The translations under genes and the position numbers were made by a program. The notes beneath the pieces were generated by a model, which was not told the origin of the DNA, ran no database searches, and saw nothing but the letters and a program-made list of their open reading frames with translations. DNA of 64,000 nt from the NCBI GenBank assembly GCA_965637545.1, contig OZ281497.1, positions 21,452,001 to 21,516,000 of the forward strand, written 5' to 3'. Source of the stretch: Phallusia mammillata. Taxonomy: Eukaryota. Positions 2,879 to 33,580 of this stretch are shown one piece after another; the first letter of the stretch is position 1; every line of letters begins with the position of its first letter.

Positions 2879-4142
2879 ATGCAAATCAGTAGCAGCATCA
2901 CCAGTGAAAATGATGATGGCACGGGACTTTACAAACGTCGCTGGTTTTTCCTAGTTATTCTCGCGCAAATCCAACTACTTACCGGCACGTCGTTCGCCCT
3001 GTTTGGTCAAATCAACAACTTTTTTGTGTTATACTTTGACGTTACCTACACTCAAGTGGACTGGTTAACTATTGCATATTATGCCGGACCATTGTTTTCC
3101 ACTCTTCCATTTGTCTTTCTGACGTTCAAGCGCTTGGTCGGCTTCAGACTAATCTCAGTTTTCGCAGCAGCCGCAAACGCAATTGGGTTTACCTTGTTTG
3201 CATTATCCATGATTGACCAACATCTATTTGCTGTCAGTATATTGGGACAGTTTGTGAATGGCATCGCGAACCAGGTTATCACAGTTACGCAACCCATATT
3301 TGCCGCTACTTGGTTTCCAGAGCATCAAGTGGGCACGGCTATTGGTGTTAATCTTGCTGGATACTTTATTGGATACATCATTGGTCTGATTGTTCCTTCC
3401 CATATTATGACCCTTAAGTTTGGTAACACCACACAGCCGGGTGGACATAGTGTAATAAACAAAAACAAGTTTGTATTGATAATTTTCTATACTAGTTGTG
3501 CTGTGATATCTGTCATCTCCGCAATTGCTTTGGGAATCTTTTCCACGGATCTTCCACCAAAGCCACTGACTCTGGCCCAGCGGCGAAAGAGAAATTCTGC
3601 CAAATCCATCCCCGAATGGAGAGAGTGTTGGCACCAAATAAAAACTATTTTTTTCCAACAAAGCATTTATGTTCTCAATGCTTATCTTAAGTATAGCCGT
3701 AATGCTAATTATATCTAGCATGATCTTATCTTTTATATCAAGCACCGCAATAGTTTTAGGTGTATATTTTGCACAATATCGAATATTGTATGGTGGGAAC
3801 GCAGTGCTTGGATTTTTTACCCAGATTGCAGTTGTCGTGTTGTTCGATATTTCAACGCAAACAACTTTTCCCATCGACGAGACTTTTGTAAGCATTTGGT
3901 TAGCGGGCCTTGCTCTCCCTACGGGAATTTTTTACGGCGAAATTGGTCGAGTTCTTTTCAACTCTGTTGGTGGTTTAAGTGTTGTAATATTTCAAAGCAT
4001 TGTATTTTTGTTGGGTGTAATTCTTGCGTGCTTTGCATCCCCTCAAAACCTTCGCATTGCGGCTTCATCGAGTTGTGAGTTTGACATTAGGATTGCGGAA
4101 AGTGTTGCTTTATTAGGTGAAGAATCGAACGACCAAAAATAA
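2879..4142 (+). pseudogene. SLC49/FLVCR-like MFS transporter copy 1, frameshifted and internally deleted
   Basis: ORFs 2876-3718 and 3669-4142 align with the 481-aa paralogue. Frameshift in a T-run near 3650 and an in-frame loss of ~60 codons (LPTVEFTMMSQ...KKYDR) near 3705. Confidence 0.85.
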
Positions 4143-4207
4143 ATATGTTTCTATATTTTGTCATTGAAATATTTTCTCTAGTGATTTCTCCAGCATTTAA
4201 ATTATAC

Positions 4208-4693
4208 CAGTGGTTCCCAACCTGGAGTTCGCGGACCGCCAAGGGGTCCGTGAGATGGTTTCAGGGGGTCCGTGGAGGCAAACAATTGTAGTAGCATTAA
4301 CAACAGTACAATATTTTTAAGTTCCCAAACCGTTTTTACAATCCTGCATCTGAGTGCAAACTGTTTATCAAACCCTTGGATCAGGAAAACTTGTAATTGT
4401 TACGTCCATTGTGACATAACAACACACATTAACAATAGAACGTATTGTGCTTTGTTTCAAGTATTGTACACCTGAAAATTTATCTCTTCGTTGCATAGGC
4501 TGGTACAGTACAGAACTTTATTGAGATTGAAGGACTGTAAAGGTTGACTAAAGGTCTGCCCGTAAAATCGAAAGTATAATAACGTATAATGCAGGAAACA
4601 AAAAAACATAACAAGACTAAATTGTGTTGGGGGTCCGCGGATCTATAAAATTTATAAAAGGGATCCGTGACTACAAAAAGGTTGGAACCACTG
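4208..4693. mobile_element. hAT (Buster-type) MITE
   Basis: TIRs CAGTGGTTCCCAACC ... GGTTGGAACCACTG; perfect TSD aattatac at 4200-4207 and 4694-4701; subterminal GGGGTCCG motifs like those of the element ending at 2615. Confidence 0.92.
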
Positions 4694-5062
4694 AATTATA
4701 CATTCATTGATTTTTATCGTTATCTGACAGTTGTGTCGTCGACAAGGACCGGGCCGCGGCCTGGCGCCGGTCTTAAAGGAGGTGGTTACTGGCCGTATAC
4801 TTTTCCGGTTAAATGCCCAGGAACATGTTTGTTGCAGTCTTTGTGTCAAGGCCCTTCGATCCCTTATTTAGTTGTTATTGCTAAGACAAATATTTCAGCA
4901 CTTTGTTTACGTCATTTTATTTAGTATATCATCCATACTATTATAAGTCAGTTCGGTATGAACCTTAAATTTGAACAAAACGAGCTTAAATCAGACTTTA
5001 CTTTCAGCTACGTTTATGTTTTAATTTTGTGTCGTAGTTTCAAAAGCATGTACGATTGGTAG

Positions 5063-5310
5063 CATATGTGTATGTAAGCTTGCTAGTTATAGTTTACAAC
5101 AAGAACAGAGTTATAAGCGGATCTTGGCCCTAATAGTATATTCTACGTTGGTGTCGTAATTCTGCGCTAATGAATTTTATTTTCGGCATCAACTAATTGC
5201 GATTTAAAAAAAAAAAACGTCCCGGAAAGGTTTGAGGAGTGTACTTTAGGGCCAAGATCCGCTTACAGCAATGTGCTTGTTGTAAACTACAACTAGCAAG
5301 CTTACATGTG
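5063..5310. mobile_element. Foldback/MITE-like element with ~70-bp TIRs; second copy at ~13598-13820
   Basis: taagcttgctagttatagtttacaacaag...taagcggatcttggccctaa versus ttagggccaagatccgctta...cttgttgtaaactacaactagcaagctta. Confidence 0.75.
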
Positions 5311-5700
5311 CTCTGACTGGTATAATCTGACTTTTAATCAGTCCTAACAATACTATTACCTTTTTCCCACGTAACGATATTACTAAAAAATCCGTATGAC
5401 AGGAAGAGGAGATGCAACGGAAAAGACCAGGCTTGACAACAAAAGGCAAATAAGTCACGACAGGGTGTTACAGTTTTTGAAAGTTATAATAATGCTGTTT
5501 GGTTTTGTACGTTTTATACGTTTTTTTGTTTATGTCAGATCTGAAATAGTGTATCTAGTGATTGAGATCTGTACGAATACCAAAACATTTAGTATGATAA
5601 CAAAAACGAATGAAAGGCCATGTTTAACTAATTAACGTTTGTTTTGTATCAGATCAGTATTAATAATCGTATTTTGTTCTAAAAGTTATCTAGCATTGTT

Positions 5701-7146
5701 ATGATGTTATCAAGCAGGAACATCAACAGTAATTTTGATGATGAGACGAGACTTTACAAACGTCGTTGGTTCTTCCTTGTTCTGCTTTCACTGACTCTGC
5801 TGCATTCCGGTAGCTCGATGGCCATGTTTGGCCAAATCAATAACTTTTTTGTGGCCTATTTCCATGTAACATACAAACAGGTGGATTGGATGACTATCAT
5901 CTATTTTGCAGCTCCGATTCTTTCAATAATTCCACTTTCTTTGCTGTCATTTGGACGTCTGGTCGGCTTCAAGTTTATCGCTGTTTTTGCAGCAGCCACG
6001 AATGCATTTGGTTTTGCATTGTTTGCGGTTTCTATGATAGACCGACATTTGTTTGCTATAAGTATATTCGGACAGTTGGTGAATGGAATTGCTAACCACG
6101 TCGGTAACATCGCACTACCTACATTTGCCGCTACTTGGTTTCCAGAGAACCAAATGGGCACGGCTATTGGAGTTAATCTTGCTGGATACTATATTGGTGA
6201 AACAATTGGTCTGATAGTACCATCCCATACCATGACCCTAAAGTTTGGTAACACCACGCATTCCCGTGGAGATATTGAGCTAAACAACAACAGACACGCA
6301 TTAATCGTATTCTACAGCGTTTGTGCGGTGGTATCTGTTATTTCTGCAATTCTTTTGGGAATATTAGCCACAGATCTTCCTCCAAAACCGCCGACCCTGT
6401 CTCAGCTACTCAAGCGGAATTCTGTGAAAGTCAGACCCGAGTGGCGAGAGTATTGGAACCAGTTGAAAGTTATTTTTTCCAATAAAAGCTTTGTTTCGGC
6501 GATTCTGATTTTTAGTATCACCGGAATGTTACCCACGGTTGAATTCACTATGATGTCGCAGATTATTCGGCATTTTAAAATAAAAAATCCCATCATTCCA
6601 AATGCTGACATCATGGGCGTCTATGTTATGTGTTTCTTTGCAGGTGGTTGCGTTTTGGGAACATTGTTAGGTGCGAAATTGGTAAATTTGTACAAAAAAT
6701 ACGACAGACTAATGATATTTAGTATGTTTTTATCTTTTCTATCGAGCATCGCAATATTGTTGGGTGTATACTTTGCTCAATACCATGTATTGTATGCTGG
6801 CAACGCATTGCTTGGAATATTTACTCAAATTGCACTAGTAATTATGTTTGACATCTCAATGCAGACAACTTTTCCTGTGGACGAAACATTTGTGGCCATT
6901 TGGTTAAGTGGATTAGCTTGTCCGACTGCAATATTTTACGGCGAAATCGGTCGAGTTCTTTTCAACACTCTGGGTGGTTTGGCTGTTGTCACTTTTCAAA
7001 GCATTGTATTTTTGTTTGGACTTGTCCTGGCGTGTTTTGTATCGCCACGAAACAGCCGTATTGAGGCTTCATCTAATGTCAAACTATGCACTGGAGGCAC
7101 AGAAATTACTTCTTTGTTGTGTGACCGAAGTCATGAGCCGAAATAA
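5701..7146 (+). CDS. SLC49/FLVCR-family MFS transporter copy 2 (481 aa, intact, intronless)
   Basis: About 12 hydrophobic segments; family motifs LYKRRW, VDW, GQ, WFPENQ.GTAIG, PPKPPT, TFPVDE. Confidence 0.92.
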   Translation: MMLSSRNINSNFDDETRLYKRRWFFLVLLSLTLLHSGSSMAMFGQINNFFVAYFHVTYKQVDWMTIIYFAAPILSIIPLSLLSFGRLVGFKFIAVFAAATNAFGFALFAVSMIDRHLFAISIFGQLVNGIANHVGNIALPTFAATWFPENQMGTAIGVNLAGYYIGETIGLIVPSHTMTLKFGNTTHSRGDIELNNNRHALIVFYSVCAVVSVISAILLGILATDLPPKPPTLSQLLKRNSVKVRPEWREYWNQLKVIFSNKSFVSAILIFSITGMLPTVEFTMMSQIIRHFKIKNPIIPNADIMGVYVMCFFAGGCVLGTLLGAKLVNLYKKYDRLMIFSMFLSFLSSIAILLGVYFAQYHVLYAGNALLGIFTQIALVIMFDISMQTTFPVDETFVAIWLSGLACPTAIFYGEIGRVLFNTLGGLAVVTFQSIVFLFGLVLACFVSPRNSRIEASSNVKLCTGGTEITSLLCDRSHEPK

Positions 7147-7804
7147 GTTTGTTACTTCTATTCGTATTTTGTTTCATCTTTATACACCAGCAAAGTTTTT
7201 TTGGTTGCTTTTTTGGGTGTAATTGAATGATCGCTTATCATTTGCCATGTAAGTGCTTCTGCTCTTTAGCTAACATATGCTGGGAGCTTTACGACTGTCG
7301 AAGAATTGTCTGCTTTTGGAACAGTCACATCCTTGTCTCTAAATTGGCGGAAACGCGGTTGTGGGAGATCCAATAGAAAGATTGTCGACATTTGCAGGAG
7401 TCAATCTAGAACAGGGGTGTACAACCCTTTTGATAATCACAGCCGCATCATGAGGCGCATGTTTTGCCAACTACCGCCAGTGTCTCCAGGTTGATTGTTT
7501 TGAAATTGCAGATTGAAACCAAACATATCACCAATGCCTTTTTCCATAAACATATCTGAATTGTCGATCACTCTTTACCGTTTATGTGACATCACCAACT
7601 ATGTGACCATGTTTGTGTTGCCTACCAAGTTTGCAATGTTTGTGCACAATAAGCCAAATATCTGAGAAATATTTCTAGTTGGCCTGTAACGCATATTTCT
7701 AGGCTAAACTCATTTGGACCTAGGTGTTTAAAAGACAAATATCTAAAAACAGAGTAAAAATTAATGTGAACCACCGCAATTGTATCATGCATTATACACT
7801 ATAG

Positions 7805-8362
7805 CAGGGGTGGCCAACTTGTTAGTCGTTGAGATCGACAAAAAATTTCTTAATCGTACGCGATCGACTGTTCTGTAGTATTTTAGGCTGCCACTGACAC
7901 AAAGCAATAACTCACATTTTCTGCATGCAATTTGATAAACAGTTACCCCATATATGTAGTTATGAGTTTTATTGTCAACAAAACGTCTCATATATACATA
8001 TTTGTCGTCAAAAAAGTCAGTGGAATGTTTGCGTCATCATTTCGTTCACTAACGTTTCATAGTCAGGGGTGTATCCCGTCAAAGACAGCTTAAGGCAATC
8101 GCGTAAGTGGTTGTCAGTGAGCATAGCACGGTGTTTTGTTTTGATTACATGAATAAAAACGCAGATTCATATAAATAAGTGGAACCAAAACAGTAATGAA
8201 TATACTCCGCACATTTTTTAACATTGGTGTATTTTACGTCTACAACCTGCCAGAAATCATTTTCGCCCGACCGAGCCCTGAGGAATACGTCAGCTTTTAT
8301 CGCCAACATTTCCATTTCAATTGCCGCTCTATCCAATTCAAACACTTCACTGATTTGGTTAT
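7805..8362 (-). mobile_element. 3' fragment of a hAT element with a decayed transposase C-terminus (GTF2IRD2/EPM2AIP1-like)
   Basis: TIR CAGGGGTGGCCAAC at 7805. Minus strand reads FGSTYLYESAF, then after a frameshift IKTKHRAMLTDNHLRDCLKLSLTGYTPDYETLV, typical of the hAT dimerisation domain. Confidence 0.8.
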
Positions 8363-9783
8363 TTACTTGCAATCAGGTCGTTCCTGGTCGATCAGAATGG
8401 GTGTTGTTTCAATATGGTCACTTGCTGTTTTGGCAATGTCAATGCGTCCGTACACTGGTGAAAACAGCCTGGTGAGCATCAGGGCGACAAGCGTCATTGC
8501 GCTTTGAAATGCGACAACAGCCAAGGCGCCACAAGACTTGAAAAGAGCTCGGCCTATACCAGCAAACACAATTCCAGTGGGTAAAGTTACCCCAATCAGC
8601 CAAACACTTACAATCGTCTCATCGACGGGGTAGGTGTGTTGAGTGGAGAGGTCATACAATGAGATCAGGGTAGTTTGTCCGATCAAGCCCATCGAAAAGT
8701 TTCCAACAAACAGCAGAGGAAGTTGTGCAAAGTAAACTCCCAGTGTAAGAATTCCAGATGACAGTACCACCGCAAATGTGCTAACACTGGCCAGTCGGTC
8801 ATATCTTTACATTGGTCAACCAATTTGCCTCCGATCAAGCACCCGAACACGTTTCCGACCGAGTAACTACACATGACGTAAGCGCCGACGACGTCATACT
8901 GTAGCGAAAGTTTTTCTGAAATCGCAATTTGTTTGACGATTTGTGACATCATGGTAAACTCGACTGTTGGGCACAGAAACACGATTGCGAAAACCAGAAG
9001 AACCACAATAAATGTTCGGTTTGTAAAAATCTTTTTTGTCTGCGACCAAAACTTTTTACAGCTAGTGTTTGTTGGAATGCTATAACTTTTCAGTGCTTGT
9101 GCAACTGTCGGAGGTTTGGGGGGAAGATCGGTTGCGAAAATTACCAGCATGATACCCACAATTGCGGCGATTGCTGCGCAAACACCATAAAACCATATTA
9201 ACATGTACTTGTGCTTTGTTATCGATAGATATTCTTTTCCTTTCATTGAAAAGTTTCCCGTTCCAAGTTGTAGCAAATGAGATGGCACAAGCAGGCCTAC
9301 GACGTTACCAACATGCAGTCCCATTGTATTCAGGCCCATTGCTGTTCCCACTTCGTTTTCTGGAAACCACAAAGCAGCAAACACTGGGGGTATTGTAGTG
9401 ATAAGTTGCCCTGCAAAACCGTTGAGAGTTTGGCCAACGACGCTAATAGCAAAAAGCGACTTGTTCACCATAGAAACTGCAACACATGCATATCCCATTG
9501 CACAAGATATTGCACAAACTACTGCAAGCAACTTAAAGGCAAGAAGTTTTCTATAAAACAGCAATGCCAACGGCAGCGTGACAAAAACCGGTGAGACGAA
9601 AAAAGCGACAGTCATCCAGTCCACTTGAATAAATGTGATGTTAAAGTAAGCGACAAAAAAGTTGTTGATCTGCCCGAACGCTGCAAAAGCCACGCCTAAC
9701 AACATTTGCAACAGCGTCAGTGCCGCAAGAAACAACCAGCGTCTTCCATACAGATAGGTGTCTTCACTTGTACAGATATTCAT
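8363..9783 (-). pseudogene. SLC49-like MFS copy 3, single -1 frameshift (pseudogene or sequencing indel)
   Basis: ORFs 8683-9846 and 8363-8770 join into a full-length protein if one A is restored near 8806-8810 (aaa-aga-tat-gac, K-R-Y-D as in paralogues). ATG at 9783. Confidence 0.8.
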
Positions 9784-10537
9784 TTTACTCGGTTGCTTTC
9801 TGTCCAAACTTTCAATCTGTATAAAACTAAGCAAAATAAAAAGCACACCTTATGCAATTAAGGTGGAGTTTGCCCAAACTCGCAGCTTGTTATCCTTGGA
9901 ATTGCTATTGTCGTATTAAAAGCGTAATAGCATTACTAAAACAGTCTGCTTGTCAGGAAAGGGATGCAGAGGAAGAGACCAATATTGAACTTAAAATGCA
10001 AATGAGTCGCAACTGATTGTTGCTGTTTTTCGAAAGTTAAAGTAATAATGTTTGAATGTGTACTTTTTGTTCACGAACCTTCAAAGTACTATAAACTATA
10101 AAGAATAACCGGATAAGTAAAATTTAACTGGTATCAAGGGCAGGCTATATCTAGTATATTGGTATCAAGTTGTTTGGTTTGTAACTAATTAGCCAAAGTC
10201 AAAAGATAATTTTGTGTGAGTAGTAACTTTTTGTCCATAAAATGTAACATGAATGAGGTGTTTCGCGAATTAACTGTTACTGTTTGAATTTGTTGCAACG
10301 GAAAGTTTTGGTTGTTTTTTGATAGCTGCGTTATGAAATGTGTGTTTTATGTTCGTTTAACAAACCAGCTGTTTAGTTTGCTTAATTGCTAAAAAGTTAT
10401 TTAGACGTTGATTTCGTTTGCAGCAGTAATAAGGTCAGTACTAATGCTAGAAAACTTTACTGGGTTTGAAAATCTAGTTGGTTTTTGTACCACATTCTAA
10501 ACAAGTGTAAAACCACCGTGTTGGGCGTTATTTAAAG

Positions 10538-10769
10538 CAGGGGTCGGCAACCTTTTTTTGCACTGCGGACCGTTTTTGAAACTGAAATTTTTATCGCGGA
10601 CCGGCCTCTAAAAAACTATATTTAACAATATACATGCTTAAATTATGTTATCATCCCCGGGAAGCACAGGGAAAATGTTTCAAAACATTTAACCTGTAAA
10701 CTATACTACCCGGCAACGAAATTCTCGCCGACCGGCATCGGACGGCGGACCAGCGGTTGCCGACCACAC
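10538..10769. mobile_element. hAT MITE (older)
   Basis: CAGGGGTCGGCAACC ... GGTTGCCGACCAC; degenerate TSD atttaaag/acttaagg. Confidence 0.75.
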
Positions 10770-11635
10770 ACTTAAGGAACTGGCAAGCCCATCAACGAAT
10801 CACCAATATTTTGTCAAACATATAAAATGCTTGCTAAAACGAAAAATTGGCGTATAGTTAAGAAATGTTTGTTTGTAAACTTTATTCACGACCCAATGCG
10901 TCAGGCAGTACGCCTGTTTGCGACCTTGGATCAAGATTTAAGCGGTCGTGAACATGTCAACTAATACATGATATAGGCCTACTTGCGGTCGTCCACAATA
11001 ATTCTTCTCTATTGTTAATTCGCTTTTTATTCAGCTAGGTTTAAACGTGTTTTAGCCTGAAAATGTGCACTACAATCCAACTAGAAATACTTGTCAGACC
11101 TTTAGCTCACTGTGTACAAACAATGCAAACTTGGCAAGCAACACAAACGTAGCCATATGGATGGTGATGTCTTATAAACGGTAAAGAGTGATCGACAAAT
11201 CAGCTATATCTATGGATAAAGGCATTGATGATATGTTATGTTTCAATTTGTAATTTAAAAACAATCAACCTGGAGACACTGGCGGAAGTTGGTAAAACAT
11301 GCGCCTGCTGATGCGACTGTCATTAGCCCAAAAGGTTGTGCACCCCTGTTTTAGGTTGACGCTTACAAATGTCCACAATCTTTCTATTGGATCTCCCACA
11401 ACCGCGCTTCCGCCAATTTTATACAACAATGTGACAGTTTCAAACCAGACAATTCTTCGACAGTTGTAAAGCTCTCAGCATATGTTGGATAAAGAGCAGA
11501 AGCTCTGTGTTACATGGCAAATCAAAAGCGTTCATTTAATTACATCTAAAAAAGGAAAACAAACTTTCCTGACGTAAAAAAAACTAAAACAAAATAGAAA
11601 TAAATTAATAAATTATTAATAATAAATTAATAAAT

Positions 11636-13082
11636 TTATTTCGGCTCACGACTACGGTCACACAACAAAGAATGGATTTCGTCGCCTTTAGTGCATAATT
11701 CGCCTTTTAATGAAGCCTCAATACGACTGTTTCGTGGCGATACAAAACACGCCAGAACAAGTCCAAACAAAAATACAATGCTTTGAAAAGTGACAACAGC
11801 CAATCCACCCAGAGTGTTGAAAAGAACTCGACCAATTTCGCCGTAAAATATTGCAGTCGGACAAGCTAATCCACTTAACCAAATGGCCACAAATGTTTCG
11901 TCCACAGGAAAAGTTGTCTGCATTGAGATGTCAAACATAATCACCAGTGCAATTTGAGTAAATATTCCAAGCAACGCGTTGCCAGCATACAATACATGAT
12001 ATTGAGCAAAGTATACACCCAACAATATTGCGATGCTCGATAGAAAAGATAAAAACATACTAAATATCATTAGTCTGTCGTATTTTTTGTACAAATTTAC
12101 CAATTTCGCACCTAACAATGTTCCCAAGACGCAACCACCTGTAAAGAAACACATAACATAGACGCCCATAATATCAGCATTTGGAATGATGGGATTTTTT
12201 ATGTTTAAAATGTCGAATAATCTGAGACATCATAGTAAATTCAACCATGGGTAACATTCCGTTGATACTAAAAATCAGAATTGCCGAAACAAAAGTTTTA
12301 TTGGAAAAAATAACTTTCAACTGGTTTCGAAACTCTCGCCACCGGGGTCTGACTTTCATAGAATTCCGCTTTAGCAGCTGTGCAAGAGTCGGTGGTTTTG
12401 GAGGAAGATCTGTAGCTAGGATTCCCAAAAGAATTGCAGAAATAACAGATACCACCGCACAAACGCTGTAGAATACGATCAATGCGTGCTTGTTGTTGTT
12501 CAGCTCAATATCTCCATGGCAATGCGTATTGTTACCAAACTTTAGGGTCATGGTATGGGATGGTACTATCAGACCAATTATTTCACCAATATAGTATCCA
12601 GCAAGATTAACTCCAATAGCCGTGCCCATTTGGTTCTCTGGAAACCAAGTAGCGGCAAATGTAGGTAGTGCGATGGTAACCACATGGTTGGCAATTCCAT
12701 TCACCAACTGGCCGAATATGCTGACGGCAAACAAATAATGGTCTATCATAGAAACCGCAAACAATATGAAACCAAATGCATTAGCGGCTGCTGCAAATAC
12801 AGCGATAAACTTGAAGCCGACTAGATGTCCAAATGATAGCAAAGAAAGTGGAATTGCTGAAAGAATCGGAGCTGCATAAAACATGATGGTCATCCAATCT
12901 ACCTGTGCATATGTTACATGAAAATATGCCACAAAAAAGTTGTTGATTTGGCCAAACAAAGCACCCGAGCTGCCGGAAAGCAGCTGTATTAGTGGAAGCA
13001 GAACAAGAAAGAACCAACGACGTTTGTAAAGTCTCGTCTCCTCATCAAAATTACTGTTGATGTTCCTGCTTGATAGCATCAT
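11636..13082 (-). pseudogene. SLC49-like MFS copy 4, inverted close paralogue of copy 2 with a +1 frameshift
   Basis: ORFs 12174-13082 and 11636-12169; one extra base near 12203 (tttaaaCataaaa vs tttaaaataaaa in copy 2). Confidence 0.82.
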
Positions 13083-13869
13083 AATATTGCCATCTAACCT
13101 TTATAACAAAATACGATAAGTAACTTAATACAGATCTGATACCAAAACATAGATTTAAAGTTAATAAATGAAACATTTCTTTCCTTTCGTTTTTGTTATC
13201 ACACTAAATGTTTTGGTTTTTTATCAGATCTCAAGCACCAAATACACTATTTTAAATTACGAACAATCTGACATAAACAAAAAGCTATATTATTACCAAA
13301 CCTTATACTTGATTACAATAAATGATATTTATTCATTTTTCTTTTCTTCGCTAGCTTTGTCTTAAGGTATGTTTGAGGTACGTAAAATATGTACACAACC
13401 ATACAGTATAATTTTATCTTTCTAAAACTGATACAATCTGTCGCTTCTCTGCTGCTTTTTATTGTCAATCATGCTCTTTTCCGTTGCATCTCTTCTTCCT
13501 GTCTTTCAGATTTGTGTTAGTAACGTTTTTACGTGGAAAAAGGTATAGTAGTATTGCCAGGAATGATTAAAAGGCAGATTATACCAGTCAGAGTGCTTGC
13601 ATATGTTAGCTTGCTAATTGTAGTTTGCAACAAGCACACAGTTCTAAGCGGATCTTGGTCCTAAAGTAGGCTACATTCCTGAAGTCCCGAATAGGTTTGG
13701 CCGAAAATTTTTGGGACTTTGTTTACAAAAATGCGTCTCGGAAAGGTATCAGGAATGAACTATTACGGCCAAGATCCGCTTACAACCTGTGCTTGCTACA
13801 ACTAGGAAGCTTACATATGCTTTTGAAACTACAACACAGAATTAAAACATAAACGTAGCTAAGGGTGAA

Positions 13870-14318
13870 ACAAGCCCTATTTAAGTTAGTTTTTTTTTAA
13901 AAGCTTAAGGTTCATACCGAACCGACTAACAATAGTATGGATGATATATCAACTGCAGAGGGTACGGCATTCTATCGTCTGTTTAGAGAACGGATTGTTC
14001 ACAGCCATGACATCAAACTCAAATGAAATGACGTAAACAAAGTCAAAAAAACCTTCCGGGGAGCTTTTTGTAAAAAAAAGTCCCCATTGGTTTAGGCCCG
14101 AAAGCAAGATTCACCAGCGTAACATTACGACATCACCATAGCCGGGTATAAAGCAAGCCCGATATAAGCTCGTTTTGTTCAAAAGATTCATACCGAACCG
14201 ACTTGCGATAATATCATAGTAGATAATATATCTACTGCAAGGAACACGGCTTTCTACCGTCTGGTTAGTAACACATTGTTCACACCCATGACGTTAAATT
14301 CAAATGAAATGACGTATA
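13870..14318. repeat. Imperfect tandem duplication, period ~285 bp
   Basis: aagccc...ttcataccgaaccgact...ttctaYcgtctg...attgttcaca.ccatgac...caaatgaaatgacgta occurs at ~13872-14038 and ~14155-14316. Confidence 0.75.
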
Positions 14319-14981
14319 CTTTTAAAACAATTGCGTGGGAAATAAAATGAGTCAAGTGCGCTTTTCTTTTACGTAATAACGTCATCATTTACAATGAATA
14401 CATAACTTACAGATTTATTTGGAACGGAATTCATAACGGAAATGCTGCTCAATATGACCAAAAAAAACTGACTCATAAACTGACAACTTTGTTGTCTCAC
14501 TGCAAAGTTTTTGTGTGCTTAAGTATTTGTATGGTATCCCCGGCTCCACCAGCCGGTGAGACCCACTTTATTTTGGTGCACAATTAGACAAGCATACGTG
14601 TCGACAATTGGATACAAGTAAAATTTCACTTTTCAGGCTATTATTTTTAGTTTTAAGGAACTTTGTAGGTCCGTGAAAAAAGTACATAGTCAAACAGTAT
14701 CAGTTTAACTTTCGAAAAACAGCAGAAATCAGTTGCGACTTTTTTGCATTGTATTGCGAAGCCTAGTCTTTTCCTCTCTGCGTCTTTCCTGCCATGCAGA
14801 TTTTTTTAACATTATTACGTTATGTGTTAAAACGCTAACAGTAATAGTAATACCAAGGATAACAAGCTGTGAGGTTGGTCAAACTCCACCTTAATTGCAT
14901 AAGGTGCTAAAATTGGTGCTTTTTCATTTCTCTTAGTTTTATACAGAGTAAAAGCTTTTGACAGAAAACCAACCGGGTAAA

Positions 14982-15421
14982 ACGAAAAGCTGTACAAGTG
15001 AAGACACCCATCTTTATGGAAGACGCTGGTTGTTTCTTGCTGCACCGGCGCTGTTGTAAATGTTGTTAGGCGTGGCTTTTGCAGCGTTCGGGCAGATCAA
15101 CAACTTTTTCGTCGCTTACTTTCAAATCACATTTATTGAAGTGTATTGCATACATTGACTGATTTCCGCTATTGTGGGTATCATGCTGGTAATTTTCGCA
15201 ACTGATCTTCCTACCAAACCTCGTTTTCCCACTGGAATTGTGTTTGCTGATATCGGCCGAGCTCTTTTCAAGTCTTTTAGTGGCTTTGCTGTTCTCGCAT
15301 TTTAAAGCACAAAGATGGTAGCCCTGACGGACGCATTGCCATTGCTTCAACTGCAAGTTGAAGTGACTATATGGAAACAACTTCAATTCTGATCGATCAG
15401 GAACGACCCGATTGGGAGTAA
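14982..15421 (+). pseudogene. SLC49-like MFS copy 5, collapsed remnant and inverted paralogue of copy 3
   Basis: Start ATG>ACG at 14982. Keeps only TM1, the TM6-PPKP segment and TM11-stop in 440 nt. Upstream 14700-14980 is the reverse complement of ~9785-10045. Confidence 0.88.
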
Positions 15422-15754
15422 ATGTCCAGAATTTCATCAACTTTGTTTAGCATTACCTGACCTCACTTGTTTGTATTTAAATGTTCGCATATTCCATTGT
15501 TCTGTAGCTGCTATTCTACCATTTGTCATACTGCGTAAGAGCATGTTTTATACTTTGTAAACGGTTAACGTCAACAACTATGGCGTTCTCTCGTTATGCT
15601 TGCCTTGTGGCATGAAAGCATATTTAATTTACCAATAAGTTGTTTTCACCTGTATATATGTAAAAGCATAGAGCCGTGCAGCTTTTCATTATTGTCTCTA
15701 TGCAGCTTGTTTTCACCTACTTTGGTAATTTCAGCATAAAGATGACTAACTTTA

Positions 15755-15846
15755 TTATTATTGTATTTTTCGACAATCAGGCGGCAGTCCGAGAACTGAA
15801 AATTGCCCTTTGTCGTTCACGGGATTCGAACCCAGGATACTCCCGG
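15755..15846 (-). mobile_element. 5'-truncated tRNA-derived SINE
   Basis: Pol III B-box GGGTTCGAATCCC on the minus strand, (TAA)n-like tail, 11-bp TSD gactaacttta at 15744-15754 and 15847-15857. Confidence 0.75.
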
Positions 15847-16848
15847 GACTAACTTTACTTGCATGGACCACTGTTGGTAGTATAATAGGCTATCGTTGGG
15901 TGTGACAAAAATTTGGATCATATCGAAATACATGAATAGACTGATTTCAGCATAAAGAGGACTAACTTTACTTGCATGGACCACTGTTGGTAGTATAATA
16001 GGCTATCGTTGGGTGTGACAAAAATTTGGATCACGAGAATCACAATGTTATAGCAAATAGAGCAAGATATGTGAAGTAATACGCAAGTCAAAGAACTTAT
16101 TCAATTCAACCATATACTAATAGCGCATGCTGTAAACAGGAAACTGCTGCTACACCATTACCATGGCTAAAGTTGTTGGTGTTAACCTGGTCCTTTACGC
16201 TTCCAAATCTACTTCCTATAGTTTCTTGTACGTTTAAGTAACATTTTAAAAGTACCGATACAGTTGCATAGCCTGATTAAATGCAGGATACCTACGCCTA
16301 TCAATCGTGTGACCAATTCAAACGTCCCGGAATATACTTCAAATTATACATCCTGTTTCGACAGAAGTGGTCTATTGTGCTCTCACATGTATATGGGTCG
16401 AGGCGCAGCGGCAATATGGACAATTAGGACAAGTTTCTTGGCCAGCTTCGTAAGTTTATTGGATCATTTGTGCTTAAACTTCTGATTTACCGGCTGTATA
16501 TTTGAGACTAAATATTTAGCAGGACGTGGGTCATTAAAACTGTTTGTTTATGAAATGAACCACACGGCTTCATTATTCACAGAAAGATTGTGGATATACA
16601 GTAGTGTCAAACATTCTTTCAACAGAGAGGCCTGCTGGAATCAATACACTGCATATGAGCTACAAAAACGGTTTAGGCAGTGCTGTTATAGTATACATAC
16701 GGTCATAGAGGGAGGTAACTGTTTGTTATGTCTCCGATTTTCTTGTGATTGTATGACGTTGTTTGACGTGTAGCCTACGTCATGTTTCTTTGAAAGGAGG
16801 CCTTGCAAAACTGACTTGGAGCTATATGTTGTTGTTGTTAACTTTAAA

Positions 16849-18285
16849 ATGATGGAATACAGAGAAGACAGTACAGAAACTTTGACAAGGTACAAAAGAC
16901 GATGGATTTTTCTGGTGTTTTTCACATTGCTTCAGTGTTTTCCTGGGATCTCGTTTTCCATGTTTGGCCAGATAAGCAGCTTCTTTGTTTCCTACTTTAA
17001 CGTAACCTATACACAGGTGGACTGGTTAACTGTGGCCATCAACGTGGCACCGATATTCTTGACATTGCCATTGTCTTGGACTATCTTTCGTAACATGTTA
17101 GGATTTCGAGGCATCGCTGTCATTTGTGCGTCTACCAGCGTAATAGCATTTGCTTGTTTTGCTATTTCCATGACCGACGGGTCTTTGTTTGCTCTGAGCG
17201 TGATCGGTCAAACAGTTGGTGGAATTTCTGGACAACTGGTGATGACGATCCCACCGACATTCGCTGCTTTGTGGTTCCCTGAAAATGAAGTTGGAACAGC
17301 TATTGGTGTCACTTCAATGGGCACGTACATTGGTAACTTTATAGGCTTGTTGGTTCCTACTTATTCGTTAGTCCATGGCAATGCAAATTCCACTTCTATG
17401 CGTTGGAAAGAACAGGACAAATATGCATTGATTTGGATCTATAGCACGTGTGTTTTTGTGGCAGCTGGTCTGGGCTTGTTTATTTGCATTTTTGTGACAA
17501 ATTTTCCACCGAAACCACCAACTATTGCACAGAAGAACAAACGATGCTCCGAAGAGTTTGCTAAAAACCGAACTTCAACTAAATTTTGGTTGCAAATAAG
17601 ATTTCTTTTGACCAACAGAACATTTCTTTGCGGGACGTTGGTTTTTGCCATTGTCTTTCAAACACCCATTGTGGAAACCACTATGATGTCACAAATAGTT
17701 CGAGAATTTTCTAACAGAAGCCATTTGACTTTGAAACCTTCTATTGTTGGTTCATTTACAATGTGTTTCAATTCATTGGGAAATGCTGTTGGTGCCGTAA
17801 TTGCAGGTAAACTAGTCGACAAACTGAAACATTACGATACCCTGAGCATAGTTGGCACTTTTCTGTGTTTCTTATCCACACTAATCATTTTATTGGGATC
17901 CGTTTTTGCTGTTTACCAGTTGCTTTACGTTGGGAATGCTTTGCTGGGAGTTTTCGCCCAGATCTCTTTGGTAACTATTTACGATATGACAACACAACAC
18001 ACTTATCCTGTTGATGAAACGTTTGTCAGCATATGGTTGATAGGCATCGCAGTTCCTTTTGGGCTTTTCTATGGCCCAATTGGTCGTTTAATATTTAAAT
18101 CCTTTGGTGGAACTGGAGTCCTTTTATTTCAAAGTGGAAGTTTTGCTGTTGGTGCTGCGTTGTGCTTTTTATTTTCACCTGAATATGGGCGATTGGATGT
18201 CGAAGAATCTTCGGAATCGGATCAAAATGAAAATACTCGGGTCTTAGAAAGACAAGCTCTAGTTCAACATGGTAACGTGGAATAA
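16849..18285 (+). CDS. SLC49-like MFS copy 6 (intact, intronless, ~478 aa from ATG 16849)
   Basis: ORF 16816-18285; YKRRW, VDW, WFPENEVGTAIG, PPKPPT, TYPVDE motifs. Confidence 0.92.
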   Translation: MMEYREDSTETLTRYKRRWIFLVFFTLLQCFPGISFSMFGQISSFFVSYFNVTYTQVDWLTVAINVAPIFLTLPLSWTIFRNMLGFRGIAVICASTSVIAFACFAISMTDGSLFALSVIGQTVGGISGQLVMTIPPTFAALWFPENEVGTAIGVTSMGTYIGNFIGLLVPTYSLVHGNANSTSMRWKEQDKYALIWIYSTCVFVAAGLGLFICIFVTNFPPKPPTIAQKNKRCSEEFAKNRTSTKFWLQIRFLLTNRTFLCGTLVFAIVFQTPIVETTMMSQIVREFSNRSHLTLKPSIVGSFTMCFNSLGNAVGAVIAGKLVDKLKHYDTLSIVGTFLCFLSTLIILLGSVFAVYQLLYVGNALLGVFAQISLVTIYDMTTQHTYPVDETFVSIWLIGIAVPFGLFYGPIGRLIFKSFGGTGVLLFQSGSFAVGAALCFLFSPEYGRLDVEESSESDQNENTRVLERQALVQHGNVE

Positions 18286-19256
18286 AGACCCTGTCCCATG
18301 CAACTCTTAAACGTCGTACGTTTAGGTTCGATGATGACGATGTTTGTGTGAACTTCTGCATTGAAGTAGTTCCAACCAAATTAAAATTACGCCAAGATTC
18401 AAATGACATTGCATTTCTGCGTTCACAGAGTTGGCTTTAAATATCGTGCACGTGTATTTAAATTTGTTGACACCGCGATTATAACAGCAATGTTATTTTT
18501 GCGTAAAATGCACTTTCAGCATTTGATCACGGAAGATTGTTTTCAACACCAGACATATTGACGTGTGTATTAATTGTTTGAACGTTGAAGGAGATTGCCT
18601 TTGCCATAGTTTCCGTTTATTGTTATATACATCTCCAAATTACGCAACATGTTCGCAACATCGTTTGCTAACGAAATAAAAGAAACATATCCTTCATAGC
18701 AAGCATGATTGATAAGGTATTGACAACGTGTGTCTTCTCTACCTTGGATTGAGTGCTTTCGTATCAACATGCAAATATTGTAGTAATTCAAATTTTAGAT
18801 GATGTTCTTGTTCTCACACATCACACACAAAAAATGTTTTTACATGTAGTGAAAACTTTTATTGTATTTATAAAATGCAAAGTTAAGGATGTTCCGAAGA
18901 AATAACTGTGATGTATTTCCCTAAAAGTGCATAAAGAGGGTAAACATATAAAACAATCGCAAAAAGACCTGAAACAAAGTATAACATTAAAAATATAAAC
19001 CCTGTCTAATGTTTGTTGTCGTTGCTTAAACAGAGTTTTTAGTTTACCTAAACAAGAGTTTGATTTTGGTTTAACCAGAAACAGTTAAGTAATCAAATTA
19101 GTTTGTGTGTAACTTTGTATTTCATTTTGTTTGAAAAATGGAGCTTACTCATACGATTCCAAAAATTCGTTATGTGTGTAGACTATAGACTCGTAACTTT
19201 ATGCTTTACGAACATAAAAAAACATGTGACTTAGCAACATCGATCACTGATAATAA

Positions 19257-20693
19257 TCATTTATTTTCGCGTGTGTCATTGATCAATTTTGCCGATTCTG
19301 CCACTTCGTCTACTTCACTGAGATTTGGATTCTCAAGAACGTCGAAGCGTCCGTATACGGGCGAAAAAAAGAAAGTCAGAATCAGAGCCATCAAAAAACT
19401 TACATTCTGAAATACCACAACCGCTATGCCGCCGAGCGAATTAAATATTACTCGGGAGATTTCGCCAAAAAATATTCCGAATGGTGCCAAGACCCCGATC
19501 AGCCAAACACTAACCACCGTCTCATCAATGGGATACGTCTGCTGGGTTGATATGTCGTACACAACCACCATGGTAATTTGCCCAAACAAGCCTAACAGAA
19601 AATTTCCGGCGTACAGCATGATGTACTGCGCAAAGACGACCCCTAGTGTTACAATTACAGCGGCTAGAAACGACGCCAGGCTGCTGGCTATCGACAGACG
19701 GTCGTACCGCTTGTACTTGTCGACCAATTTGCCTCCAATCAACGTCCCAACCACGTTTCCAACTGAGTAGAAACACATGACGTACACACCTATGACGTCA
19801 TGCTTCAGGGAGAGCCCCTTCGCCTCCGCGAACTGTTGAATAATTTGTGACATCATTGTGAATTCGCCGGTGGTGCCTTGGAAAATTAATCCAAATACCA
19901 AAGTGCCCAAAATGAAAGTGCGGTTTGTGAAGATTGTTTTTGTCTGGGACCAGAACGCAGGACAGTTGAGATCTGAAGGAGTCTGATTTCTTTTAAGTTT
20001 TTGGGCCACAGTAGGGGGTTTAGGTGGTAGATCTGTTCCGAAAATTGCAAGGACAACGCCAACAGATGTTGCTATTGCGATGCAAACGCAGTAGATCCAA
20101 ATCAAAGTGTATTTATTTTTTACCATCCAGTATCGCTTGTCCGCAGAAGTCAAGTTGTTCATTCTTAGCTTCATAAGGTGCGATGGCACAATAAGACCTA
20201 CAAGGTTACCGATGTACAAACCCATCGAAATAATCCCAATTGCTGTTCCTACTTCGTTTTCAGGGAACCACAAGGTTGCGTACACTGGTGGAATTGCAGT
20301 AATAATTTGTGCTGCAAAGCCGTTGATTGTTTGTCCGATGACGCCGATTCCAAAAAGTGACGAACCGGCCAAAGAAATCGCAATACAAGAAAACCCCACT
20401 GCTACTGATATTGCGCAAATAATGGCAAGAACTTTCAACCCCATAACTTGTTTAAACAGCAGCCAAGCTAAAGGTAAAGTGGTAAATATGGGTGCAATGT
20501 TAAAAGCTATTGTCATCCAGTCCACTTGGGCGTAGCCGACACTGAAGTAAGCGACAAAAAAGTTGCTGATCTGGCCAAAAGCAGAATACGATATCCCACA
20601 TAGTATTTGTAACAGCGTCAGAATGCCCAAGAACAGCCATCGTCTTTTGTATAACTGTGTGTCCGTTTCTTTGTTGGTGATATTGTTCAACAT
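19257..20693 (-). CDS. SLC49-like MFS copy 7 (478 aa, intact, intronless)
   Basis: Full ORF with the same motifs. Confidence 0.92.
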   Translation of the reverse strand: MLNNITNKETDTQLYKRRWLFLGILTLLQILCGISYSAFGQISNFFVAYFSVGYAQVDWMTIAFNIAPIFTTLPLAWLLFKQVMGLKVLAIICAISVAVGFSCIAISLAGSSLFGIGVIGQTINGFAAQIITAIPPVYATLWFPENEVGTAIGIISMGLYIGNLVGLIVPSHLMKLRMNNLTSADKRYWMVKNKYTLIWIYCVCIAIATSVGVVLAIFGTDLPPKPPTVAQKLKRNQTPSDLNCPAFWSQTKTIFTNRTFILGTLVFGLIFQGTTGEFTMMSQIIQQFAEAKGLSLKHDVIGVYVMCFYSVGNVVGTLIGGKLVDKYKRYDRLSIASSLASFLAAVIVTLGVVFAQYIMLYAGNFLLGLFGQITMVVVYDISTQQTYPIDETVVSVWLIGVLAPFGIFFGEISRVIFNSLGGIAVVVFQNVSFLMALILTFFFSPVYGRFDVLENPNLSEVDEVAESAKLINDTRENK

Positions 20694-25961: not shown

Positions 25962-28900
25962 TCATCGGTGGTATTTAGGTTTAAAAATATATGTTTTGGT
26001 TTGGTTTATTTTGTTCGTGCGGTTAAAATAAACACCTGATCTCCCTTTATTGATGAAACTTCCTTTGAACGATTGCGTTGCCGACGTCTGAAACCTGTTC
26101 GTATAGGTGATAATTTGTCGCTCAGTTCCTGTGAAACAACATGGGCACTGGTTACCCATAGACCAACTGTTTAGTTTATTTCGTTTCTGAACGTTGCACT
26201 CATTTTCTTGAAAAACTTACTGTTTGTAAATAATAGTGGAACTGACACCAAATATTTTCTACTTACTTGGTGGGCTGATCGTGTTGTTCACCGCCGGTGT
26301 ATTTTGACCCCTGGTTGGTTGAACCAGGTGGTTTCCTCTGTTCGGGAAAACAGCTGATTTTGTTTCCAGATTATCCTGAAAATGTGGACTTCTGATCCCA
26401 TTAGTCCACGATTTTTCCGCTGTAAAATGAGATTATGTGGTTTAAAACATATTGATCTAAAACTGACAAAATAAATATAGGCGTAATATATAAGATATAG
26501 TGGGCATGGTTACCGAAGTTTCGCAGCCATTTATAAATAGCAATTGTTACTTTGTGTTTGTAGACAAAGCAAAACATAACTTACTTTAATTTGTAAACAG
26601 ATAATAATTTTTGTTTGAAAATCGCCACTTTAAAATGAGTTTGGGTGATTTGGAAAGAGGACTAACCAGTTATGGGGGGAAAGTCCTCCTGATCGGCGTC
26701 TGAATCGTCAAACGAGTCATCAATCTCAGTTTCTTGTTCACTAGGTAAGGGTGGGAGAGGTTTTTGTCTCTTTTCCCGTTCTGTTAGCCCAAAACAATTA
26801 TTTACAGGCAAACAATATGACAAGGACACGTTATACGCAAAAATAGTGCCCGTTGACTTTTTCTTGCTGTTTTACGAAACCATTCAACGATAACAATTTA
26901 ACAAAGTGCAATGCAAATAAATTTAACTTGACTTGTTAAGTTGTCACATTAGGATGTATTTAAACGTCGATTTGGTAAAAACGTAAAACTTACCCGCTAA
27001 CTCCTTCCTGTTTGCTTTTATTTTTTTCGCCGCCATTTCTTGTGCTAGTTGTTTCTGGTCGTCCAACGTTTTCGTTGTAACTTGACTGGAAGCTTTACTC
27101 GGCGCAGTAGTGCGACTGACTTTTGATTCTTGAACAGATTTTGGAGTAGCCTGTGTCTTCGGTTTTCTACGGTTCGGTTTTGTTTCGTTTTCCTCCCAAT
27201 ATTCTCTTTCCGTTGTCGTGTTTGAGGCTTTTGTTGGTTTCTGTCTCAGTGTTTGGCTGTTTACCTGCTTGGAGGTTTTACTAGAGCGGGGAGCTTTATT
27301 CTGCACTGATTTTTGGCCTGGTGATTTTGTTGAGGTTTTTGGTTCAGATTGCTTTAAAATTTTGGGTTGATTTTTCCCTTTTGAGGCATTTTTCTTTACC
27401 AGATGCTTCTTGCCCTTTTCTGTGGAGTTCTTTAAAGTTTTTGCTGTTTTTTTCTTAACTTCAATCTCGTTTTCGTAGTCTTCGTCTTCTTCATCAACAT
27501 ATTCATCATTTTCATCATAGTTGTCTCCCAACTCTTCTTCATCAATCCCATCATCTTCCTCTTCCTCAAACTCAGTATAGTCCTCATCGTCAATGTCTTC
27601 ATCATCGTTTTCTTCTTCAGTTTCCATATAATCCTCTTCTTGATCATAAAATTCCTCTTCCACATCTTCATCATCCCAGAATGTTTCCTCGTTCACCCTT
27701 TTTGACTTCTTCGGTCGCCGTTTTTGCTTTTGCACCACTTTTTGTCTCTTACTGCTGGTCAAAGTTTTTGTCTTTTTGCGTGACAAAGATTTTGTGGCCC
27801 TTTGCCTTTTTGCAGTTACCCGACCTTTAACCGCACCTCTTTTTCTTTCCAGTTCTCTACTTGCATGTGCACGTTTCTTACGTACGGCAGTTTGTGACTT
27901 GTTGACAAAATCTATTGCAAAAAATAGGTCGCTGTTTAGCTACGGCAGTTAGAAATTTATGCAGTATTTATAAAACATTGCTAACCTTTCTTTTTTGCCT
28001 TTGCTTTTTCGATCGACTCTTTCGAACTGCAAGTTTTTTATAAATATTAACAAAAGTTTTTGTTTGCAGGAACTGAGGTAAAAAATTGGTAAATTAGAAA
28101 AAAATGCAACCTTTTGTAATAAACTGATCCAAACTGCGACATGTTTCACATATTGTGGCCTGTTTTTACTAATATTGTCAAAACTGTAGTCGAGTAAATC
28201 GAGTCACTTGTAACGATTAAATGGATCGAAATGTTTATGACTAGGACTATGTACAAGTTAATTACAACTTAATTATACTATACAAGGCGATAAAAATCAC
28301 CAACTCACGCGTTGCCAGCTAGTCCTTTAAATTTCTTCACTAAACCTATCCCGGCAACACCAACAAGTCCCCCAATCAACCCTGCCCCTCCAGCCGTGCC
28401 AAGTGAAGTAAGAAGCCCAGATGGGTCATCAAGGCCACCAGCGACACCGGGCTCCGATTCTGATCCGTTTTCGGTTGCTTCAAATACAATGTACAATTGC
28501 AATGGATGATTTTTACAGGCTAATTTAATCTATATGTTAAAATATAGACCTATCAATACAAGAAAGAAACTATGTGCCCTCTAACAAATTTTGGACTCAA
28601 TCTTTGCTTAATTTGTGGATGATATCGGACAAACAAGCAGTCTTTTAGAACAAAACTGTTCGGTTGATATTATGATTATGTACTGAAGTAAAATCAGTCA
28701 GATATGTCAGTATGTTGTGATCCTTCCTTATGCCAACAAAGAACGCAGGGGCCTATAAACACAAACCAGTTATCTGTCTGTACGTTAAAATGTTCTTACG
28801 CCATATCTTTGCTAAGTGCGCATAATTTATTCACAAAAATGCATGTGCTTTCGTTTTCATCCGACTCCTGTCTACCTGCAGTCGGATCAAAATTGCGGGG

Positions 28901-31629: not shown

Positions 31630-33580
31630 TTTATTACAAGATTATTATATCTGCGCGATAAAAATATTTTTTGTTTATAACCAATTTCTTTTTCAAAGCC
31701 AAATTCCTGTTAATAAGGCAAAATTGTTTTTTTCTACAACTTATTTCGCTTTCTCTAACAAGGACAAACCTAATTAGTTTTGTAAGGTATTTTTTAAGTC
31801 TATCAAAGACGTTTTTTAATTACCTTGCGGCCTAAACTTAACACTCTTAGTTACAAGTACCCTGTTGCAATATTGGAAATCGCTAAAAGCTTATATGTTC
31901 TATCACTATCACTGCAATTCCTAAAATCACTTTCACGGAAAATCAGTGTCGATTTTTGACCCTTGCGTCATACTTGACCCTTGTGTCATAATTAAAATAT
32001 CAAACATTTTTAGTTTATTTTTTTTCGATAGGCTGGTGCTGACATTTACCAAATGAACAAAAACGACACGGGTCAAGATATATGTGCAAAATTGCTAATG
32101 GGTATTCACTAAAGTTGCGCAATTTTGCTGTATTCGTCCGTAATACCCTTAATTGTGTCTGCAACTTAACGACCATTTCTCAGTCTATCTACGTGAATCT
32201 GCAAATTGACACCACTTCCGCCGTGCATTTGACTGCGGTTGTATCGCGAATGAAATATGCTTGATGACTTTTAGCTATTATCTTAGTTTAAAAAGTGAAT
32301 GAGTTTTAAAAGCAGTATATTTAACTCAATATATCAAGAATAATGCCTGGCAATCCATTCGCTTAAAACGTATAGCGTTTAAAACTGAACTGTTTATTTG
32401 TTAGTTTAATGGAATCCTTTGCAAAGGCAAATGAACTGCTGCAGTATACCACATTTAAAAACGTGTCATATAATTTCAAATTTATCCTTTTCATCCGAAA
32501 ATATTGTAAATTTACATAGAAAAGGACAAAAGAAAAGACGACCCATAGAAGCAAAAAATGCACAAAGATTTTAGTTTTGGTAAACTACCCATGGAAGCAA
32601 AAATACATTAGTTTTGGGAAACTAAAAAAAAAAAATTGTTGTTGGTTGTATCTTGGAATAGAAATTTGTATTATTTGACACATCCACAAACACTACAAAA
32701 CGCAATATAGCATTTCAGTCTTACAGTAGGAAAACCACACACTTTTTCATTTATCAGCAAATAGCCATCGGCAAAAGAATATCATGACTGTTAAGTGTAT
32801 TGTGTTGCAATTTTGACGTCACTTCCAGGCGGTAGCATATTTACTTGCAGTCGTTATGTCTATTTAAAGCTTTAGACCCAGCGTTCTGCGCACATTGTAA
32901 CTCCGCGATAATCGCTTTTATCAGTACGAAGAAAAACATAAAAAATGTGACATGGTTGCTATTCGTCCAATTTAACTTTTCTGATTGATTTCTGCCTAAT
33001 AGCCTATATCTTTTTGTTTGGAACTTGATGTGGCAGATTCGTCGGTTAGAATAGAAACGCCTTTTTCGGGAATTATCTGTCGATAAATGAAAATATAACT
33101 AAAAATTCAAGTAAACTCAGCAGCTTTCAAAAAAACATTTGATTTTCACACACTACAAGTTGCTATACGCCGTGTTGACTGAAGAAATGCCATTGTCGCT
33201 AAATTCATCTTAAAAGCATTTAAAAGTCGCAACATCTTAAAGTTAGAGCAACAGTACTGGGGGTTTGTTGGTTACCCTTACAGGGCCGAAAAACATCTGT
33301 GACAAGCATGAATTAAAATTTAAATGGTCCTCTCCGCCCACTGGCTGATCTCAAAGTAACCAGCCTATTCAATGCAGCTAAACCCACTCATTGTGACGTG
33401 AGAAGCGCTGTGTGGAAGTATTCAAAAATAAAATGTAGTCACAATGCCTGGAAAACCACTTGCTTTGCCGTACATGGGTACAGATGGTTATTAGTTTGAG
33501 GCAAGCAAGGCAAAGGCAAAGTAGTATCAACAAACTGACTTTACTGTGTGAACGATGCGCAACTGTCGAGCTAAGTGGTA

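Follow-up and report, generated by a model that had tools for sequence, protein, structure and literature searches.

What are seven SLC49-type transporter copies, all without coding introns and several of them broken, doing side by side in the genome of the ascidian Phallusia mammillata? They lie at 2879-20693 of a 64,000-nucleotide stretch, hereafter the window (GenBank assembly GCA_965637545.1, contig OZ281497.1, positions 21,452,001 to 21,516,000 of the forward strand). Copy number and strands (+,+,-,-,+,+,-) were established from six-frame open reading frames (ORFs), self-BLAST and tblastn. No intron-like gap was seen on inspection of the alignments of any copy. Three copies are intact (copies 2, 6 and 7, single ORFs of 478-481 codons), three are frameshifted and one has collapsed. 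The initial annotation had described the locus in these terms, correctly, and had proposed that a retroposed or intron-lost local founder expanded for a lineage-specific transport role. The array alone is ordinary; the genome-wide radiation deserves attention. With moderate confidence, the proteins are read here as transporters that move small organic solutes by a rocker-switch mechanism; many would be endolysosomal or vacuolar, cargo would differ between subfamilies, and the whole would be kept as a birth-and-death family. On this reading, the array forms a single cluster within an intronless lineage that left the FLVCR branch long ago, is found across ascidians, and grows and decays by local duplication and pseudogenisation.

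Membership in SLC49, as annotated, is borne out by sequence matches, fold matches and phylogeny. Pfam MFS_1 scored above cut-off in all three intact window copies, and the PDB sequence matches of intact copies are FLVCR1/2 in five of five cases. An AlphaFold model of copy 7, built on a 129-row alignment, has a predicted local distance difference test score (pLDDT) of 93.4, and its top 12 Foldseek and VIA rows are all FLVCR1/2. The best structural match (FLVCR1/FLVCR2) has Z 47.4 and a root-mean-square deviation of 2.1 Å over 421 residues at 22% identity; VMAT1 follows with Z 40.0. The top ESM Atlas clusters are FLVCR-like. The copies combine a 12-transmembrane-helix (TM) MFS fold with best similarity to SLC49.

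The array is one of many. Genome searches and 897 kb of sequence yielded 118 SLC49 loci on seven contigs, of which 78 are full-length single-ORF genes and the other 40 are broken or partial; these counts are lower bounds, taken from the best-scoring candidates only. In a 219-row FastTree phylogeny, 76 of the 78 genes fall into one clade (support 100) together with 101 database proteins and one two-exon gene, and the remaining two are SLC49A3-like. A 54-row IQ-TREE analysis under a site-mixture model recovered the clade with a Shimodaira-Hasegawa-like approximate likelihood ratio test (SH-aLRT) value of 100, separated it from SLC49A3 on the FLVCR side (99) and left it outside the FLVCR orthologue group (99), without fixing its exact sister. 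The clade groups neither with the FLVCR1/2 orthologues, whose group (support 99) has two other, multi-exon genes of the genome, nor with SLC49A3 (Amia P0004), which groups with other genes of the genome. A pattern for a tentative DIRC2 motif had no match in the genome, a result that says nothing on whether DIRC2 is present.

All ten named members among the 101 database proteins are ascidian (Phallusia 3, Styela 4, Clavelina 2, Ciona 1); six names come from 24 clade members looked up and four from word searches. These four genera span the three ascidian orders. Three proteins recorded for Phallusia mammillata have counterparts in the genome at 99.4, 99.6 and 100% identity, which marks the animal as that species or one nearly identical to it. 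Several deep clade lineages are common to Phallusia and other species. In metagenome contigs, 33 of 54 loci hold a full single-ORF clade member, 16 of them distinct at 92%. Clusters of intact and broken copies, purifying selection and lineage-specific subclades are all present, as in a birth-and-death family. The genome-wide copies rule out the array as a unique local event, and the local founder of the initial annotation gives way to an ascidian-wide intronless clade whose intact genes, at least 76 of them, are spread over seven chromosome-scale contigs. The lineage-specific expansion that it proposed stands, with all of these genes in a single clade. It had named as a caveat intronless arrays of this clade that are widespread and already described: widespread they are, and no description of an ascidian SLC49 radiation was found in the open literature, with subscription papers and supplements (gene-family tables of ascidian genome papers) outside that coverage. 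The part of PMC13160678 covered here contains nothing on invertebrate SLC49.

The loss of introns relative to multi-exon relatives was also annotated correctly. Multi-exon FLVCR-type genes persist in the genome (G000:C1:11.73 Mb and C8:12.07 Mb), have exon borders in common and keep the pocket W-Y-M-Q-N. The 76 clade genes are single ORFs against 8 to 10 exon matches in the FLVCR-type genes, so that coding introns are missing where the parent type has them, as in retrogenes. The single clade member with an intron (G000:C7:7518137-7519993) has one GT-AG intron, which lies in the TM5-6 loop, clear of the FLVCR exon borders, and was likely gained. Because the multi-exon FLVCR genes share their borders and the lone clade intron lies elsewhere, introns were most likely lost once, on the clade's stem. 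The loss is old and not peculiar to the window array, since proteins of Ciona, Styela and Clavelina fall into the clade as well. A founder that predates the ascidian orders would have lost any poly(A) remnant and target-site duplication. The intron-containing parent that the initial annotation sought was not found in any nearer form; Ciona P0128, a weak sister (support 83), has no close counterpart in the genome. Two SLC49A3-like genes are single ORFs (G000:C1:12363970-12365445 and 12373403-12374995), whereas those at C4:18.43 Mb and C5:0.55 Mb are multi-exon; the two represent a second, separate intron loss within SLC49 in the Phallusia genome. Lack of introns is no rarity among ascidian genes: in Ciona, 15% of non-operon genes and 38% of operon genes are intronless (PMC2760879).

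The array continues beyond the window. Six further copies (two intact, three broken, one remnant) lie upstream, for a total of 13 copies over 45 kb, five of them intact; the annotated extent of seven copies in 18 kb holds inside the window. Copies spread as DNA, because copy 4 duplicates copy 2 with its flanks (Table 1) and copy 5 likewise duplicates copy 3. Copies 2 and 4 share 88% DNA identity over 2.8 kb, rising to 97-98% across ~450 bp of the 3′ half. Copy 5 retains the 5′ flank and first 175 bp of copy 3, ~30 middle codons and the 3′ end; the first 175 bp are 91% identical to copy 3, and one stop and two large internal deletions are present. Copy 1, which is 65% identical to copy 2 at the amino acid level, has lost most of TM7-TM8 through its 180-bp deletion. 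Pairwise ratios of nonsynonymous to synonymous substitution rates (dN/dS, omega) among array copies are 0.15-0.46 where dS is unsaturated, broken copies included. The lesions are recent, because broken copies also show these ratios, and the array is old, because dS is saturated between copies 6, 7 and 3 and the copy 1/2/4 group. Assembly error behind the lesions of copies 1 and 3 is ruled out, as both are spanned ungapped by contigs from three runs of two studies (X1, X2 and X3, of which X1 is possibly the source sample). The stretch of copies 2 and 4 with 97-98% identity (window 6600-7050 vs 11730-12180, against 89% in the 5′ half) is a possible gene-conversion tract. Upstream of the same two copies lies a non-coding block with 70% conservation (4925-5521 vs 13380-13948) that contains an inverted repeat at 5072-5307.

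The cargo pocket of FLVCR is not retained in the clade. Choline contacts in FLVCR are W125/W102, Y349/Y325, Y153, M154, Q214, N245, F348 and Q471, and W125A abolishes uptake by FLVCR1 (PMC11168923, PMC10557757). Fish FLVCR2 (P0107), gapless against human FLVCR2, served as the pocket ruler, and hhalign and MAFFT mapped the eight pocket sites of copy 7 identically. Trp at the W102 column is absent from all 76 genome clade members and all 101 database members (six gapped), vs 26 of 33 FLVCR-like proteins outside the clade that have it. Y325 occurs in none of the 76, and the set W102/Y130/Q191/N222/F324/Y325/Q447 that marks the FLVCR pocket is not found in the clade. The extracellular gate Asp (D124) is kept in 74 of the 76. 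Judged from these residues, transport of choline or ethanolamine by the copies, the known role of FLVCR1/2 on which the initial annotation had drawn, is unlikely for any clade member because the choline-binding pocket is gone. The database label 'choline/ethanolamine transporter FLVCR2-like' is not backed by the predicted pocket of these proteins.

Pockets differ widely within the clade. When genome members are grouped at 60% identity, the resulting 37 groups have 36 distinct pockets, and the eight sites are more variable than random TM-site sets (P = 0.0008). The same holds for 98 database clade members (P < 0.0001). Among 11 hand-picked FLVCR near-orthologues the pocket is less variable (P = 0.005; by residue class P = 0.08). 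Arg or Lys is found in the pocket of 59 of the 76 genome members; the array copies carry no pocket charge. From the neutral to aromatic pockets predicted for copies 2, 6 and 7, their cargo would be small solutes, uncharged or weakly basic. The clade has two larger arrays, at G000:C4:25.51-25.63 Mb, where most members share the pocket F-R-N-E, and at C8:15.58-15.67 Mb, where most have two or three pocket arginines, a hint of anionic cargo.

A candidate sorting signal is enriched in the clade. The pattern [DE]xxxL[LI], which we take to be a lysosomal sorting signal, follows TM12 in 24 of 76 genome members (shuffled mean 2.8, maximum 9; 0 of 500 shuffles reach the observed count). The motif occurs in the C-tail in 16 of the 37 groups and in 49 of the 86 database members that have one; outside the clade it is found in 0 of 31 proteins. 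Copies 1, 2, 4 and 7 have this dileucine, and copies 3 and 6 have near forms only (ERQALV in copy 6). An N-tail acidic dileucine occurs in 12 of 76 members (4 of 37 groups, a level reached by 16 of 500 shuffles). DIRC2 is targeted to lysosomes via an N-terminal ERQPLL and exports pyridoxine with H+ (PMC9719028). The FLVCR/DIRC2 likeness given in the initial annotation is therefore divided: the clade stands on the FLVCR side of the tree, and its DIRC2-like feature is the lysosomal-type dileucine, here C-terminal. In the 129-member subclade holding the array, the position of Glu277 of copy 7, in TM7, is Glu or Asp in 82 members and Gln in 29. FLVCR orthologues have a hydrophobic residue there (Glu/Asp in 0 of 11). 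This TM7 glutamate may be a proton site.

Transcription is suggested for one window copy. Four RNA-like runs, drawn from two studies, have contigs that run through copy 6 and its flanks (16519-18643) with no skips; the RNA status of these runs is a guess, and they were found using the window stretch itself. No other window copy is covered over its length by the RNA-like runs, which does not mean that these copies are silent, and the unique DNA adjoining copy 7 is nearly bare. Because the cover of copy 6 is unskipped and the copy 7 DNA is nearly bare, transcription of copy 6 is suggested.

The favoured explanation proposes the following course. An intron-free FLVCR-type copy would have arisen ahead of the divergence of the three ascidian orders, with choline transport left to the multi-exon FLVCR genes. 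The freed copy would have acquired the C-terminal [DE]xxxL[LI] signal, leading to sorting to endolysosomes, as the N-terminal ERQPLL does for DIRC2. Different subfamilies would have fixed different pockets. The large subclade holding the array would have gained the TM7 glutamate as a putative proton site, which could make its members H+-coupled exporters from acidic compartments. The simplest cargo of such exporters would be products of intracellular digestion in a filter feeder.

Several observations weigh against this explanation. The clade sits on long branches in trees that contain no DIRC2 sequence. Names are available for 10 of its 101 database members, and the other 91 could include non-ascidian ones. 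The named Ciona, Styela and Clavelina members are known at the protein level, and one Styela protein is labelled 'isoform X1'. Pocket conservation is average in 31 FLVCR-like proteins outside the clade (mean percentile 46). The strict C-tail dileucine is lacking in 52 of 76 genes, copies 6 and 3 included, and in six inspected named Ciona, Styela and Clavelina members and P0138. Eight of the 13 array copies are broken, which fits a weak need for each copy. Positive selection was not significant in three gene groups, A (26 genes), B (14) and W (8), with M8 vs M8a p = 0.5, 0.16 and 0.18 under an own, approximate implementation of codon site models. An M8 vs M7 result in group A (p = 0.036), for which the scale parameter lay at the grid edge, is explained by a neutral class.

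Part of this evidence would suit a family with one broad job, such as polyspecific efflux of dietary or microbial compounds, in which pockets drift under relaxed constraint and copy number rises and falls mostly neutrally. The broken loci (40 of 118, and those of the array), the lack of positive selection and the many recent duplicates with one pocket in common all favour such redundancy. Relaxation is also expected to raise pocket omega, which is raised only in the array's recent copies (0.60 vs 0.33, p = 0.012 uncorrected, in one of three groups, with five of that group's eight rows broken). However, pockets are constant within subfamilies, with subfamily A under normal constraint (omega 0.23 vs 0.23), their charge differs between subfamilies, from the Arg/Lys of the majority to none in the array, and several deep lineages occur in other species too. 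Redundancy is possible and less probable than a set of distinct cargoes. Nutrient or osmolyte carriers for other small solutes at the plasma membrane of gut, pharynx or epidermis, with a tail motif for recycling or basolateral sorting only, are unlikely. The closest solved structures are plasma-membrane uniporters, the strict motif is missing from most genes, and SLC49A3-labelled genes, known by label only, are hub genes of salinity-responsive modules in an ascidian (PMC10159005); but the clade shows strong enrichment of the C-tail motif, which the outside proteins lack, and the TM7 acid residue would fit acidic compartments. Host-virus conflict, in which expansion and divergence of the copies would serve to evade or decoy viruses, as mammalian FLVCR1 is a retroviral receptor, is highly improbable. 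The family is large and turns over fast, and most top-ranked M8 sites are in loops; however, no site class with omega > 1 is supported and the measured excess of variability sits in the buried pocket. We know of no ascidian virus that uses such a receptor.

A bolder extension of the favoured explanation, and a doubtful one, is that a single-substrate nutrient carrier gave rise in ascidians to dozens of vacuolar transporters with variable pockets. These would fill or empty the special acidic vacuoles of blood cells and tunic cells, whose contents include pigments, metal ligands and metabolites of the tunichrome type or for defence, or would sort what a varied microbial diet yields. If true, the repertoire would underlie a tunicate-specific trait at the molecular level and amount to a natural library of SLC49 specificities. 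The human genome has four SLC49 genes, whose cargoes (heme, choline, ethanolamine, pyridoxine) are not yet fully agreed. With at least 76 intact paralogues in a single chordate genome and some 36 pockets in place of the choline cage on one fold, the clade forms a set for studying cargo choice. The clade is also useful for asking how a surface uniporter turns into a lysosomal, perhaps proton-coupled, exporter, and it supplies candidate transporters for ascidian vacuole biology.

Features of the window are listed in Table 1. The neighbouring genes had been described as intron-rich, which does not hold for all of them: the ANKRD13 gene consists of two long coding stretches and the Cir_N gene of one ORF.

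Table 1. Array copies, mobile elements and other genes in the window (window coordinates)
Feature	Position	Strand	Details
Copy 1, pseudogene	2879..4142	+	+1 base at ~3648; 180-bp deletion at 3705
MITE (miniature inverted-repeat transposable element), high-copy	4208..4693	.	14-15 bp terminal inverted repeats; 8-bp target-site duplication; very high contig depth; presumably hAT-like
Copy 2, intact ORF, 481 aa	5701..7146	+	pocket M-Y-F-N-Y-P-T-C; TM7 Glu; C-tail EITSLL
Copy 3, broken	8363..9783	-	-1 frameshift at 8806; 57% identical to copy 7 at aa level
Second MITE-like element, high-copy	10538..10766	.	ends similar to those of the MITE at 4208..4693
Copy 4, broken	11636..13082	-	+1 frameshift at 12203; inverted duplicate of copy 2 including flanks
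Copy 5, collapsed remnant, ~440 bp	~14982..15423	+	inverted duplicate of copy 3
Copy 6, intact ORF, 478 aa	16849..18285	+	pocket F-I-N-G-T-P-I-V
Copy 7, intact ORF, 478 aa	19257..20693	-	predicted 12-TM MFS fold closest to FLVCR2; pocket Y-F-N-A-L-T-T-A; TM7 Glu277; C-tail ESAKLI
331-codon frame	26944-27939		basic stretch, long acidic run, Lys/Ser/Thr-rich part; no Pfam match
C-type lectin exons	28300-34400	-	Thr-rich stalks; Lectin_C match at 30631-30960
494-codon open frame	35018-36502		several YxxM-like motifs; no Pfam match; presumably resembles tail of a signalling adaptor
ANKRD13, then same-strand single-ORF Cir_N protein	37786-41187		intron-poor, possibly an operon
RNF220 exons	57425-58994

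Large FLVCR-like families are found outside ascidians. The velvet mite Dinothrombium tinctorium has clusters of 47, 27 and 21 FLVCR-like genes with ~25-30% identity to FLVCR1/2 (PMC6275457). This expansion is also lineage-specific and, in an arthropod, presumably independent of the ascidian one. C. elegans has eight SLC49 homologues; the worm's HRG-13/14 are vesicular heme exporters, as is SLC49A3/MFSD7, likewise SLC49 members in vesicles with a cargo other than choline (bioRxiv 10.64898/2026.07.31.742071). Phallusia has four separate SLC49A3-like genes, parted from the clade by a branch with support 99. FLVCR1 and FLVCR2 (SLC49A1/A2), uniporters of choline and ethanolamine, share with the clade the 12-TM MFS fold and the same side of the SLC49 tree. 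Unlike them, the clade is intronless, has at least 76 copies, lacks W102 and has gained a C-terminal dileucine and a TM7 Glu. DIRC2/SLC49A4, an H+-driven exporter of pyridoxine from lysosomes, shares the family and an acidic dileucine of the ERQPLL type, which is N-terminal in DIRC2 and C-terminal in the ascidian clade. By analogy, DIRC2 may serve as a model for how the clade works.

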